Source of the DNA: Escherichia coli
Lineage (GTDB): Bacteria; Pseudomonadota; Gammaproteobacteria; Enterobacterales; Enterobacteriaceae
Length of the DNA: 64,000 nucleotides
Reading direction: 5' to 3' (one strand)
NCBI RefSeq assembly: GCF_048403405.1
Contig: NZ_CP183129.1
In this document: positions 29,116 to 38,496 of the stretch, in pieces
Layout: every line of letters starts with the position of its first letter
Numbering within the stretch: position 1 is the stretch's first letter
Position numbers and translations under genes: made by a program
The notes under the pieces: model-generated
Told to the model about the DNA's origin: nothing
Seen by the model: only the letters and a program-made list of their open reading frames with translations
The model's database searches: none

Positions 29116-31773
29116 GTGACTTTCTTTGATTTCTGGGGAAAAACCCGACGTGGCGAGAAAGAGGGTGGTGACGACTATCACCTTCTTTGCTGGCATTCGC
29201 TGGATGTAGCCGCGATGGGCTATTTAATGGTTAAAAGCAATTGCTTCGGGCTGGCTGACTATTTTCGTCAACTAGGTTTCGCTGATACGGAGCAGGCAGC
29301 ACAATTTTTCGCCTGGTTGCTGTGCTGGCACGATACTGGAAAATTTGCCCGCTCTTTTCAGCAACTTTACCTGCACCCGCAACTCAAGGTTCCGGAAAGC
29401 TCTAGAAAAAATTACGAAAAAATCTCTCATTCAACGCTGGGTTACTGGTTGTGGCACCATTATTTAAGTGAATGCGAAGAATTGCTTCCTTCATCTTCAC
29501 TCTCTCCGCGCAAACTTAAACGGGTGATAGAGATGTGGATGCCCATGACTACCGGGCATCATGGTCGCCCGCCTGACCGTATGGATGAACTGGATAATTT
29601 TCTGCCTGAAGACAAAGCCGCCGCGCGAGATTTTCTCCTTGTAATCAAGGCACTGTTTCCTCTCATCGAGATCCCCGCATTCTGGGATGATGACGATGGC
29701 GTTGAACTTTTAAAACAACTTTCCTGGTATATCTCTGCAACTGTCGTACTTGCAGACTGGACGGGATCGTCAACGCGATTTTTTCCACGCGTCGCGCAGG
29801 CAATGGATATTGAAGATTACTGGCAGAAGGCTTTAGTTCAGGCTCAAAACGCATTAACCGTCTTTCCTCCAAAAGCACAAACCGCGCCTTTCACCGGAAT
29901 TAATACGCTGTTTCCTTTTATTGAGCACCCGACACCGTTACAGCAAAAGGTGCTGGATCTGGATATCAGCCAGCCTGGGCCACAGTTATTTATTCTGGAG
30001 GATGTGACTGGCGCAGGTAAAACAGAAGCGGCGCTTATCCTGGCCCACAGGTTGATGGCTGCGGGGAAAGCACAGGGTTTGTTTTTTGGCCTGCCAACAA
30101 TGGCAACGGCCAATGCCATGTACGATCGGCTGGTAAAAACCTGGCTTGCTTTCTATTCGCCAGAATCCCGCCCCAGCCTGGTGCTGGCACACAGTGCCCG
30201 CACATTAATGGACCGCTTTAATGAATCACTCTGGTCCGGTGATTTAGTCGGGTCAGAAGAACCGGATGAACAAGCGTTCAGTCAGGGATGTGCGGCCTGG
30301 TTTGCCGACAGTAACAAGAAGGCGTTGCTGGCTGAAATTGGCGTCGGCACGCTGGATCAGGCGATGATGGCGGTGATGCCGTTTAAACATAATAATCTGC
30401 GGCTTCTGGGACTGAGTAACAAAATCCTGCTGGCTGATGAGATCCATGCCTGTGACGCTTACATGTCGTGCATTCTTGAAGGATTGATTGAGCGGCAGGC
30501 GCGTGGCGGAAACAGCGTTATTTTGCTTTCTGCCACGTTATCTCAACAGCAGCGCGACAAACTCGTTGCTGCCTTTGCGCGTGGTGCAGAGGGTCAGCAA
30601 GAAGCTCCGTTCCTGGAAAAGGATGATTACCCCTGGCTGACGCACGTTACGAAATCGGATGTGCATTCACACCGGGTAGCAACGCGCAAAGACGTTGAGC
30701 GTAGCGTGAGCGTGGGTTGGCTTCATAGCGAACAAGAGTGTATTGCGCGTATCGAATCGGCGGTAAGTCAGGGGAAATGCATCGCCTGGATCCGGAATTC
30801 TGTCGATGATGCTATTAAAGTTCATCGTCAGTTGCTTGCCCGCGGCGTCATTCCTGCTTCCAGCCTTTCTCTGTTTCATAGCCGCTTTGCTTTTAGCGAT
30901 CGCCAGCGAATTGAAACGGAAACGCTGGCACGCTTCGGTAAAGAAGATAGCTCACAGCGTGCCGGAAAAGTCCTCATTTGTACTCAGGTCTTAGAGTCGA
31001 GCGTTGATTGCGATATGGACGAAATGATTTCCGACCTGGCCCCTGTTGATTTGCTGATCCAGCGAGCGGGGCGATTACAGCGGCATATCCGCGATATTAA
31101 TGGTCAGTTAAAGCGTGACGGAAAAGACGAGCGTTCTCCTCCTGAATTGCTGATTCTGGCCCCCGTCTGGGACGACGCTCCAGGTGACGAATGGTTCGGC
31201 AGTGCCATGCGTAACAGTGCATATGTCTATCCCGATCATGGACGAATCTGGCTGACGCAGCGTGTACTGCGTGAGCAAGGCGCGATTCAAATGCCACACG
31301 CAGCCCGCCTTCTTATTGAATCAGTCTACGGTGAGGACGTGGTAATGCCGGAAGGATTTGCCCGCAGCGAGCAGGAACAAGTGGGCAAATATTACTGCGA
31401 TCGCGCAATGGCTAAAAAGTTTGTGCTGAACTTCAGGCCCGGCTATGCCGCCAATATCAACGATTACCTCCCGGAAAAGCTGTCGACACGTCTGGCTGAG
31501 GAGTCTGTTTCCCTGTGGCTGGCTACCTGTATTGACGGTGTGGTGAAGCCTTATGCCACCGGTGCTCACGCATGGGAAATGAGCGTTGTCAGAGTGCGTC
31601 GAAGCTGGTGGAAAAAACATTGCGATGAGTTTTCTTTACTGGAAGGGGAAGCGTTCAGGCAGTGGTGCGTTGAACAGCGGCAAGATCCGGAGATGGCAAA
31701 TGTGATTTTAGTTACCGATGACGAAAGTTGCGGGTATTCGGCTAGGGAGGGATTGATTGGTAAGGTTGATTGA
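29116..31773 (+). CDS. cas3: Cas3 HD nuclease/helicase (type I-E)
   Basis: 885-aa ORF, GTG start; HD motif (WHDTGK), Walker A (GAGKTEAA) and DEIHA helicase motif. Confidence 0.93.
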   Translation: MTFFDFWGKTRRGEKEGGDDYHLLCWHSLDVAAMGYLMVKSNCFGLADYFRQLGFADTEQAAQFFAWLLCWHDTGKFARSFQQLYLHPQLKVPESSRKNYEKISHSTLGYWLWHHYLSECEELLPSSSLSPRKLKRVIEMWMPMTTGHHGRPPDRMDELDNFLPEDKAAARDFLLVIKALFPLIEIPAFWDDDDGVELLKQLSWYISATVVLADWTGSSTRFFPRVAQAMDIEDYWQKALVQAQNALTVFPPKAQTAPFTGINTLFPFIEHPTPLQQKVLDLDISQPGPQLFILEDVTGAGKTEAALILAHRLMAAGKAQGLFFGLPTMATANAMYDRLVKTWLAFYSPESRPSLVLAHSARTLMDRFNESLWSGDLVGSEEPDEQAFSQGCAAWFADSNKKALLAEIGVGTLDQAMMAVMPFKHNNLRLLGLSNKILLADEIHACDAYMSCILEGLIERQARGGNSVILLSATLSQQQRDKLVAAFARGAEGQQEAPFLEKDDYPWLTHVTKSDVHSHRVATRKDVERSVSVGWLHSEQECIARIESAVSQGKCIAWIRNSVDDAIKVHRQLLARGVIPASSLSLFHSRFAFSDRQRIETETLARFGKEDSSQRAGKVLICTQVLESSVDCDMDEMISDLAPVDLLIQRAGRLQRHIRDINGQLKRDGKDERSPPELLILAPVWDDAPGDEWFGSAMRNSAYVYPDHGRIWLTQRVLREQGAIQMPHAARLLIESVYGEDVVMPEGFARSEQEQVGKYYCDRAMAKKFVLNFRPGYAANINDYLPEKLSTRLAEESVSLWLATCIDGVVKPYATGAHAWEMSVVRVRRSWWKKHCDEFSLLEGEAFRQWCVEQRQDPEMANVILVTDDESCGYSAREGLIGKVD

Positions 31774-31798
31774 GATGCCCTGGAGTCGGAGGACTCCA

Positions 31799-31889
31799 GG
31801 GCCTATCCCCGCTGACGCGGGGAACGGAATAACAGAGTAACAGGAGCTACCTCTTACTGCTGGTTTATCCCTACGTTAATAGGGAAGAA
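31799..31889 (-). repeat. Two degenerate CRISPR-repeat-like units in inverted orientation in the cas3-cse1 intergenic region
   Basis: 31799-31827 GGGCCTATCCCCGCTGACGCGGGGAACGG matches the reverse complement of the repeat at 23/29 positions; 31861-31889 TGGTTTATCCCTACGTTAATAGGGAAGAA matches at 17/29 and keeps a CCCTA/TAGGG stem; start-to-start spacing 62 nt. Confidence 0.6.
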
Positions 31890-32238
31890 GGGAGTATAGC
31901 ATCTACTGAGATGAATTTGTTTTGATATTTAATGTGAACTTCCTCTTACTGCCTTTACATTTTTCTATGCGAGGAGTAATCTTTGCTCAGTTTGGGAGAG
32001 TTGAGTTTTTTTTACCCAAATATAGGCTCTGGATACAGGACTGATTGGTTATTCCAGAGTATGAGAATTATGTAAGAGGGTTGTACCATGGAAGAAAAGA
32101 CCTCCCGCTGTAAACGACTGTTTTGTCGACTAATGGTTCGTTTTGGTAAAAGGTTGTCAGTTAGTTTTCAGTTATCGGTTAACTAAAGGTTTAAGGGATG
32201 ACAAATGCCATGGAAGGTGATTTTAATAAGGAATAGTT

Positions 32239-37713: not shown

Positions 37714-38003
37714 GCATGGTCGTGGTTGTTACAGAAAATGTCCCGCCGCGCTTACGTGGACGGCTCGCAATCTGGCTCCTGGAAGTGCGTGCTGGCGTGT
37801 ATGTCGGAGATACGTCCAAACGTATTCGGGAGATGATCTGGCAGCAAATCTCCCAACTGGCAGGTTGCGGGAATGTGGTGATGGCCTGGGCGACAAATAC
37901 TGAGTCTGGTTTTGAGTTTCAGACCTGGGGCGAAAACAGACGTATCCCGGTGGATTTGGATGGGTTACGTTTGGTTTCTTTTCTTCCTGTTGATAATCAA
38001 TAA
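37710..38003 (+). CDS. cas2: Cas2
   Basis: 97-aa [37 protein letters not shown]..., overlaps cas1 stop. Confidence 0.93.
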
Positions 38004-38099
38004 GTTATCCGTTCTTTAAAAATAAGGAAATGTTTGAATTTAGTTGGTAGATTGTTGATGTGAAATAAAGTTGTTTAAAAACAGATATGTATGCTTAGT
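38004..38099 (+). promoter_or_regulatory. CRISPR leader of the cas2-proximal array
   Basis: AT-rich 96 bp between cas2 and repeat 1; GTTGGTAGATTGT at about 38044-38056, 57 nt before the first repeat. Confidence 0.75.
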
Positions 38100-38496
38100 G
38101 TGTTCCCCGCGCCAGCGGGGATAAACCGAATACGCAACAGTGTTTTTATTGACAACACCGGTGTTCCCCGCGCCAGCGGGGATAAACCGGCAACGCCAGT
38201 AAATCAGACCAACGGCGCTGGGTGTTCCCCGCGCCAGCGGGGATAAACCGCGTTGTTTTGCCGGGTCGGGTGAATATATCGTAGTGTTCCCCGCGCCAGC
38301 GGGGATAAACCGGCCAGATTTCCAGTTCACTGGTCTTCGCGGCAAGTGTTCCCCGCGCCAGCGGGGATAAACCGAATGAGAGCTGACAGGTGTATGTCAT
38401 CAGTACGTGTTCCCCGCACCAGCGGGGATAAACCGTAATATTAGACTAATGTTTTTTTGTTGAGTTCGTGTTCCCCGCGCCAGCGGGGAACTCCCA
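38100..38496 (+). CRISPR. CRISPR array (CRISPR I, cas-adjacent): 7 repeats, 6 spacers (32-33 nt)
   Basis: Repeat GTGTTCCCCGCGCCAGCGGGGATAAACCG at 38100, 38161, 38222, 38284, 38346, 38407 (one G-to-A change) and a truncated terminal repeat at 38468 (GTGTTCCCCGCGCCAGCGGGGAACTCCCA). Confidence 0.97.

Follow-up and report, generated by a model that had tools for sequence, protein, structure and literature searches.

A 64,000-nt stretch of the Escherichia coli chromosome (the window; coordinates count from its first letter), covering the cysH–iap region, carries a complete type I-E CRISPR-Cas locus. The locus is almost certainly the published majority I-E variant of E. coli, named cas-E1, cas-EO or var. 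B-8552, which groups with Salmonella enterica and Escherichia albertii, apart from the cas-E2 system of K-12. This variant is already known and well described in the literature, and the locus is ordinary. All eight cas genes look intact, judged from their sequence, even though cas3 is labelled 'frameshifted' in related genomes. The lineage also holds a spacer that matches the chromosomal core gene ybgE.

Eight plus-strand open reading frames (ORFs) between 29116 and 38003 encode Cas3, Cse1, Cse2, Cas7, Cas5, Cas6e, Cas1 and Cas2 (Table 1). When scored against the NCBIfam type I-E equivalogs with their curated cut-offs, all eight were above threshold, and the I-E signature set (TIGR02547, TIGR02548, TIGR01869, TIGR01868 and TIGR01907) was far above it. 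The cas1e/cas2e adaptation pair and the order cas3-cse1-cse2-cas7-cas5-cas6e-cas1-cas2 also fit type I-E. The length of every cas gene is a multiple of three and is the same as in intact RefSeq homologues (GF43, MLI109). Cas3 is a single chain, in which TIGR01596 (HD) spans residues 24-219 and TIGR01587 (helicase core) residues 292-662, and it keeps the motifs HDTGK, GAGKT (Walker A), DEIH, SAT and GRLQR. In Cas1, the stretches where the catalytic residues of K-12 Cas1 should fall are present; one reads RGIEGSRVR. An earlier note, made from the letters of the window, had described just such a complete locus with eight intact genes, and this is borne out by the ORFs, the equivalog scores and the gene lengths. 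Its description of the genes as joined by overlapping stop/start junctions is right for four of the seven junctions (cse1/cse2, cas5/cas6e, cas6e/cas1 and cas1/cas2; 4-19 nt) and wrong for the other three, which are two gaps of 10-14 nt and a cas3–cse1 gap of 465 nt.

Table 1. Features of the CRISPR-Cas region in the window
Feature	Position	Strand	Description
CRISPR2 (CRISPR2.3) array	11271..12031	+	Between queE/ygcF and ygcE; 13 repeats, 12 spacers; annotated as CRISPR in RefSeq
CRISPR2 spacer 8	11727..11758	+	Matches pmgT of P1-like phage-plasmids
CRISPR2.2 remnant	12535..12624	+	2 degenerate repeats, 1 spacer
hok/sok module	28584..28879	+	sok RNA 28584-28741 (Rfam RF01794, 111.7 bits); Hok ORF 28727-28879, 50 aa
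T4 run	29093..29096	+	T3 in RefSeq reference strains (alignment with GF43, MLI109); 20 nt 5' of the conserved GTG
cas3	29116..31773	+	885 codons, GTG start; HD nuclease and superfamily 2 helicase; TIGR01596 and TIGR01587 above cut-off
cas3–cse1 intergenic region	31774..32238	+	Rare 465-nt form
Hairpin	31777..31803	+	Perfect 11 bp, directly 3' of the cas3 stop; -24.2 kcal/mol
Relic inverted mini-array	31799..31889	-	Repeat 31799-31827 (23/29), 33-nt interval, repeat 31861-31889 (17/29)
cse1/casA	32239..33801	+	520 aa; Cascade large subunit and reader of the protospacer-adjacent motif (PAM); TIGR02547, 608 bits
cse2/casB	33798..34334	+	178 aa; TIGR02548, 105 bits
cas7/casC	34349..35404	+	351 aa; Cascade backbone; TIGR01869, 448 bits
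cas5/casD	35415..36161	+	248 aa; TIGR01868, 160 bits
cas6e/casE	36143..36793	+	216 aa; pre-crRNA endonuclease; TIGR01907, 285 bits; start same as RefSeq
cas1e	36790..37713	+	307 aa, GTG start; integrase; TIGR03638, 381 bits
cas2e	37710..38003	+	97 aa; TIGR01873, 133 bits
Leader	38004..38099	+	96 nt, AT-rich (26% GC), E1 type
CRISPR1 (CRISPR2.1) array	38100..38496	+	7 repeats, 6 spacers of 32-33 nt; terminal repeat degenerate
CRISPR1 spacer 4	38313..38345	+	33 nt; matches chromosomal core gene ybgE (cyd operon)

The variant and its distribution

The Cas proteins are 96-99% identical to those of E1-type E. coli (including MLI109 and GF43) and 93-99% identical to those of E. albertii. For the interference proteins, identity to Salmonella and Citrobacter is 70-88%, against 21-35% to K-12 (Table 2). 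The K-12-specific models stayed below their cut-offs (PRK09694, 424 against 569 bits; PRK09693, 98 against 576 bits), which places the locus outside cas-E2. The earlier note had suspected a Salmonella-like variant because the start of the repeat and the N-termini of Cas3 and Cse1 differed from those of K-12; the protein comparison agrees, since identity to the Salmonella interference proteins is 70-85% and high identity to K-12, which it had named as a point that would tell against it, is confined to Cas1 and Cas2 (about 85%).

Table 2. Amino acid identity of the Cas proteins to two reference systems
Protein	K-12	S. enterica diarizonae
Cas3	29%	70%
Cse1	21%	74%
Cse2	none detectable (BLASTP)	85%
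Cas7	30-32%	85%
Cas5	35%	81%
Cas6e	27%	79%
Cas1	85%	96%
Cas2	85-86%	95%

Further marks of the cas-E1/cas-EO variant are also present: the GTG repeat and E1 leader by cas2, a hok/sok module and a GC content near the genome average. Almendros et al. 2014 described two clusters, the larger being cas-E1, with S. enterica and E. albertii among its members, and the smaller being E2, made up of K-12 and other group A strains; leaders are variant-specific, and hok/sok occurs in all E. coli but the cas-E2 strains (PMC3903273). The leader in the window is identical at 90-91 of 96 nt to those of the E1 strains MLI109 and GF43 (94%), against 75 of 112 aligned columns for K-12. GC content of the cas operon is 51.1% (window 51.3%), compared with 44.8% for the K-12 operon; published values are 53.5% (E1) and 45.6% (E2) (PMC3903273). 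Díez-Villaseñor et al. 2013 found that the type A repeat, leader A and cas-EO (named after O157:H7) go together, and that cas-EO takes up spacers next to CWT (AWG in the orientation used here) and K-12 next to CTT (AAG) only (PMC3737337). A 2025 survey in Microorganisms gives the same identity table and the name var. B-8552 (PMC12736100).

Prevalence was counted with a 9385-nt query spanning the locus against 5426 complete E. coli genomes. Partial matches were found in 4289 of these, and 2373 held at least 80% of the locus. Identity was 100% over all 9385 nt in six genomes (4621, MS 69-1, TUM1226, TUM14771, GN02461 and record OX030728; hereafter the sister genomes) and 94-96% in hundreds more. 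The allele of this lineage is about 4% diverged in DNA from all other complete genomes, and it is a recombination mosaic. Blocks of 500 nt are 100% identical to GMF054 (29000-30500), GF43 (33500-34500) and an Escherichia sp. clade strain (34000-34500), and the same strains are only 93-97% identical over the remaining cas operon (window 29000-38000). These blocks agree with the report of recombination by Almendros et al.

Outside the arrays the window differs from strain 4621 by 6 substitutions or indels in 46 kb. The RefSeq order in that strain is queE – CRISPR – ygcE ... cysJIH – hok/sok – cas3 – casA – casB – cas7e – cas5e – cas6e – cas1e – cas2e – CRISPR – iap – cysDNC. The hok/sok module sits between cysH and cas3, directly 5' of cas3, and the gene at this site in strain 4621 is named 'Hok/Gef family protein'. 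At the same position K-12 has only sokX left.

Arrays and spacer targets

The CRISPR1 repeat is GTGTTCCCCGCGCCAGCGGGGATAAACCG, with a spacing of 61-62 nt. This 29-nt repeat folds into a 7-bp hairpin (-15.2 kcal/mol), and palindromic repeats of 29 nt, spacers of 32-33 nt and a position 3' of an AT-rich leader are what is expected of an I-E array. The Salmonella array uses the same 29-nt GTG repeat. The cas-adjacent array of K-12 has ten exact copies of a GAG repeat, confirming a difference that the earlier note had given along with its correct count of six spacers; the satellite array of K-12 is GTG. CRISPR2 lies 26 kb upstream of CRISPR1 in the same orientation, and this one set of cas genes would serve it in trans. 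The single spacer of the CRISPR2.2 remnant appears to be conserved in most E. coli genomes, going by the counts of match places. With it the window holds 19 spacers (6 + 12 + 1), rather than the 18 in two arrays counted previously.

CRISPR2 varies between genomes that are otherwise nearly identical. The window lacks one spacer that strain 4621 has. GN02461 lacks the leader-proximal spacer and TUM14771 lacks spacer 3; in both, the spacer ACAGCATGAGCGTAATCAGTTGCGATTCCATC, missing from the window, lies between spacers 6 and 7. Array lengths suggest that the remaining sister genomes also carry an extra unit there. Spacer differences between such close relatives point to recent gain and loss in CRISPR2, probably including an acquisition at the leader end.

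All 19 spacers, concatenated, were compared by blastn (E ≤ 1) with INPHARED (50,697 phage records) and PLSDB (72,556 plasmid records). The only matches were to the P1 family and to ybgE, plus array self-hits on chromosomes wrongly entered as plasmids; thus the search for phage, plasmid and self targets that the earlier note had proposed gave two kinds of target and none for the other spacers. The 216 PLSDB records with any spacer match were found mostly through CRISPR2 spacer 8. This spacer matches phage P1 at 28/32 nt, with a preceding ATG PAM, and Leclercia plasmid pZ96-1_2 at 31/32 nt, where the motif is ACG. Two protospacers in all were located, with ATG as the flank in the best-supported source of each but ACG in the Leclercia match. 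In megablast of all spacers against the 5426 E. coli genomes there were at most three match places per genome and no near-exact prophage target; each sister genome has exactly three, namely the two arrays and ybgE. As had been judged by eye, no spacer matches the rest of the window beyond chance (best non-self match 14/15 nt, longest perfect match 13 nt). The ATG PAM at the P1-family target, the ATG flank at ybgE and the spacer differences between sister genomes are indirect signs of real adaptation.

The match of CRISPR1 spacer 4 to ybgE was found in 5384 of the 5426 E. coli genomes (33/33 or 31+/33 nt), and in most of them it is 33/33. Only nine extra match places occur in the whole collection, so very few genomes hold spacer 4 in an array; it is retained in all six sister genomes. 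Strain 4621, as the closest complete genome, was taken to stand for the host's own ybgE allele (L006, 10568-10600), and its match is 32/33 nt. The mismatch is at spacer position 32 and is synonymous (TTC/TTT, codon 39). In an evenly spaced sample, 12 of 30 listed genomes had the 31-nt alignment that this mismatch yields; the polymorphism is therefore probably widespread and not an escape mutation of this lineage. As spacer 4 carries the TTT allele and the closest genome TTC, the spacer may have been taken up from the DNA of another E. coli strain.

The ybgE protospacer is preceded by AT and its first base is G, which makes the canonical ATG acquisition motif for E1. The array unit of spacer 4 has one additional G where repeat and spacer meet and is 62 nt long, a length shared by the unit of spacer 3, so that in the register of the CRISPR RNA (crRNA) the motif would be CAT, not AWG. 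CAT is not listed as an interference-permitting motif in the K-12 text (PMC6568314), although K-12 data are not safely transferable to E1 Cse1. The tolerated match could be due to transcriptional silence (established in K-12, presumed here), to the register-shifted non-AWG motif or to a defective cas3 (unlikely), and these explanations do not exclude one another. A lineage with both a near-perfect self-matching spacer and recent array turnover is a possible natural test case for self-match tolerance in wild E. coli.

Activity of the system and the start of cas3

The working steps proposed for the locus follow from family membership. Transcription of the arrays would be driven by the leader, and Cas6e would cleave each repeat hairpin to give 61-nt crRNAs. 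On the crRNA, Cse1, Cse2, Cas7, Cas5 and Cas6e would form Cascade, which would bind AWG-flanked DNA protospacers and open an R-loop; Cas3 (HD nuclease and helicase) would then be recruited and the target degraded. Cas1-Cas2 would add 33-bp spacers to CRISPR1 and to the satellite array 26 kb upstream, at the leader end in each case. By analogy with K-12, there is probably little transcription of the system in ordinary conditions, and such silence would help to explain toleration of the ybgE-matching spacer.

Several points weigh against an intact and working system. RefSeq, through the Prokaryotic Genome Annotation Pipeline (PGAP), labels cas3 'frameshifted' in strains 4621 and GMF054, as checked directly in both. 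A near-perfect self-match to ybgE is easier to tolerate if interference is inactive. Seventeen of the 19 spacers are unmatched in INPHARED phages or PLSDB plasmids, and the five CRISPR1 spacers besides spacer 4 have no exact 24-mer match in IMG/VR. The cas3–cse1 intergenic region must contain the promoter of the cse1 operon, and no consensus sigma-70 promoter was found in 31774-32238, which bears on whether this lineage expresses its Cascade operon. Lastly, what is said here of E1 Cascade activity, PAM use and regulation is drawn by analogy from K-12 and from one acquisition study of O157:H7.

On a rival reading, the RefSeq label marks a real frameshift pseudogene. Interference would then be dead, and Cascade, Cas1-Cas2 and the arrays would be a decaying or DNA-binding-only remnant, in which a spacer against ybgE could persist. 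The cause of the label is one extra T upstream of GTG 29116 (the T4 run in Table 1), relative to the genes of the 899-aa RefSeq reference proteins, which start at an ATG equivalent to window position 29073. It also fits this view that the self-matching spacer occurs in the arrays of only the six sister genomes, all with the T4 allele (tested at the near-exact level), and that loss of Cas is frequent in E. coli (PMC2886076). However, the 14 codons by which the reference protein is longer are unconserved outside E. coli. The codon aligned to 29116 is GTG in E. albertii, Intestinirhabdus alba, Citrobacter youngae and Salmonella enterica subsp. diarizonae, and TTG in Klebsiella indica and Phytobacter ursingii; in all six species the sequence 5' of this start is unrelated and has in-frame stops. 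In E. coli L017, whose cas3 is 90% identical, the upstream ATG is put out of frame by a different, separate indel. An AGGA lies 8 nt 5' of GTG 29116, with nothing comparable before ATG 29073. In the 885-aa form, alignment to the HD-domain model and to solved Cas3 structures begins at residues 6-24, and the 885-codon ORF is otherwise unbroken, with all motifs present. Furthermore, at least 131 complete genomes, of human, poultry and pig origin, have the T4 allele. Together these observations place the start of cas3 at GTG 29116, as the earlier note had it. From the sequence comparisons it is very likely that cas3 is intact and that the extra T belongs to the 5' untranslated region, and a true frameshift was judged unlikely, on the cross-species alignment of start codons and the frequency of the T4 allele. 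The frameshift that the earlier note had named as fatal to its reading is thus raised formally by RefSeq, but it hits a non-conserved 5' extension, outside the 885-codon ORF. The 899-aa RefSeq model of Cas3 for E1-type E. coli appears, on the same comparisons, to be over-extended at its N-terminus. Genomes with the T4 allele are liable to a cas3 pseudogene label, and annotation-based surveys of 'intact' systems will under-count them.

Spacer 4 might be thought to serve regulation rather than immunity, with Cascade binding the cyd-ybgE operon and modulating its transcription. The match of 32-33 of 33 nt to a gene present in 5384 of 5426 genomes, and the keeping of the spacer in all six sister genomes, would suit such functional self-targeting. 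Yet the extra G in the 62-nt unit gives CAT as the target-adjacent motif and not the AWG of the variant (PMC3737337), the spacer is limited to one small lineage, and there is good documentation that Cas1-Cas2 can take up chromosomal DNA by accident (PMC6568314); a regulatory role is therefore very improbable. Also very improbable is a recent horizontal acquisition of the locus from Salmonella in place of a resident E. coli allele. The identical repeat and the 95-96% identity of Cas1 and Cas2 invite that idea, but the interference proteins are only 70-85% identical to those of Salmonella, against 93-99% for E. albertii and 96-99% for other E. coli. Moreover, thousands of E. coli genomes have the E1 variant at this chromosomal position, GC content of the operon equals that of the window, and Almendros et al. 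2014 inferred that E1 is ancestral in E. coli and the E2 of K-12 a later replacement (PMC3903273). A resident cas-E1 locus with an intact cas3 is thus the preferred reading.

Two contigs turned up in the cas3 comparisons under unexpected names, 'Collinsella sp. MAG' (L015) and 'Pseudocitrobacter vendiensis' (L016). Their cas3 segments are 94-96% identical to the E. coli gene, and in L016 the sequence upstream of cas3 is also identical. Both are probably due to contamination or mis-binning.

The cas3–cse1 region and comparison with known systems

The full-length 465-nt region between cas3 and cse1 was found in 6 of the 5426 complete genomes, all of them sister genomes. In most E1 strains and in E. 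albertii the region is 89-97 nt, and what it has in common with the 465-nt form is limited to the first ~6 and last ~40 nt. No credible ORF and no Rfam family was found in 31774-32238 (sok upstream was the only Rfam match), and the ~400 nt unique to this form gave no promoter, ORF or database match. The hairpin directly 3' of the cas3 stop is a probable terminator or RNA end.

Just 3' of this hairpin are two degenerate, inverted relic repeats, 62 nt apart, both of which still fold as hairpins. A homologous relic pair, with changes that keep the hairpins but with unrelated sequence between the repeats, recurs in GF43 and seven other genomes, which have a second rare E1 form, and in the cas3-casA region of K-12; outside the window the relic positions are L003 4185-4270 and L002 ~12484-12550. 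The relic 'spacers' of the three long intergenic forms had no phage or plasmid match, and the inverted pair is not mentioned in the literature searched. For K-12, an antisense 'anti-Pcas' transcript of 150-200 nt, with no function assigned to it, has been reported (PMC7074321), and the K-12 relic would lie inside anti-Pcas in the sense orientation. That the relic is a conserved regulatory RNA recognised by Cas6e or Cascade, or the footprint of a module exchanged between E1 and E2, rather than junk, is an improbable proposal.

The discovery value of the locus is small, because the two I-E variants, the tie of each to its repeat and leader type, their different acquisition motifs and the affinity of the majority variant to Salmonella were published in 2010-2014 and 2025. 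However, most E. coli and Salmonella have the E1 variant, and the experimentally characterised model is the K-12 system, with Cascade structures 4QYZ, 4TVX and 5H9F; sequence searches for Cse1, Cse2 or Cas3 of E1 type among solved structures found none. As identity between Cse1 and its K-12 model is just 21%, the PAM-reading rules of K-12 may not transfer to E1.

K-12 cas-E2 shares with the locus in the window its subtype, gene order, locus position, repeat hairpin, 61-nt period and a GTG satellite array between ygcE and ygcF. It differs in its GAG repeat, its leader, its 45% GC, the lack of a hok gene and its acquisition motif, which is AAG only, compared with AWG for E1 (PMC3737337). Closer is the I-E system of Salmonella enterica, with the same 29-nt repeat, gene order and GTG start of Cas3, although that is a different species-level allele in which cas3 and cse1 appear almost contiguous (~14 nt by tblastn ends) and hok/sok is absent. 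With cas-E1/cas-EO the locus shares its chromosomal site, gene order, GTG ('type A') repeat, E1 leader, hok/sok neighbour and gene lengths (2700 nt for cas3 if counted from the extended start, then 1563/537/1056/747/651/924/294 nt). From other cas-E1 strains this lineage is set apart by ~4% DNA divergence, a cas3-cse1 region of 465 nt rather than 89-97 nt, the T4 allele and a spacer set of its own, the match to ybgE among them.

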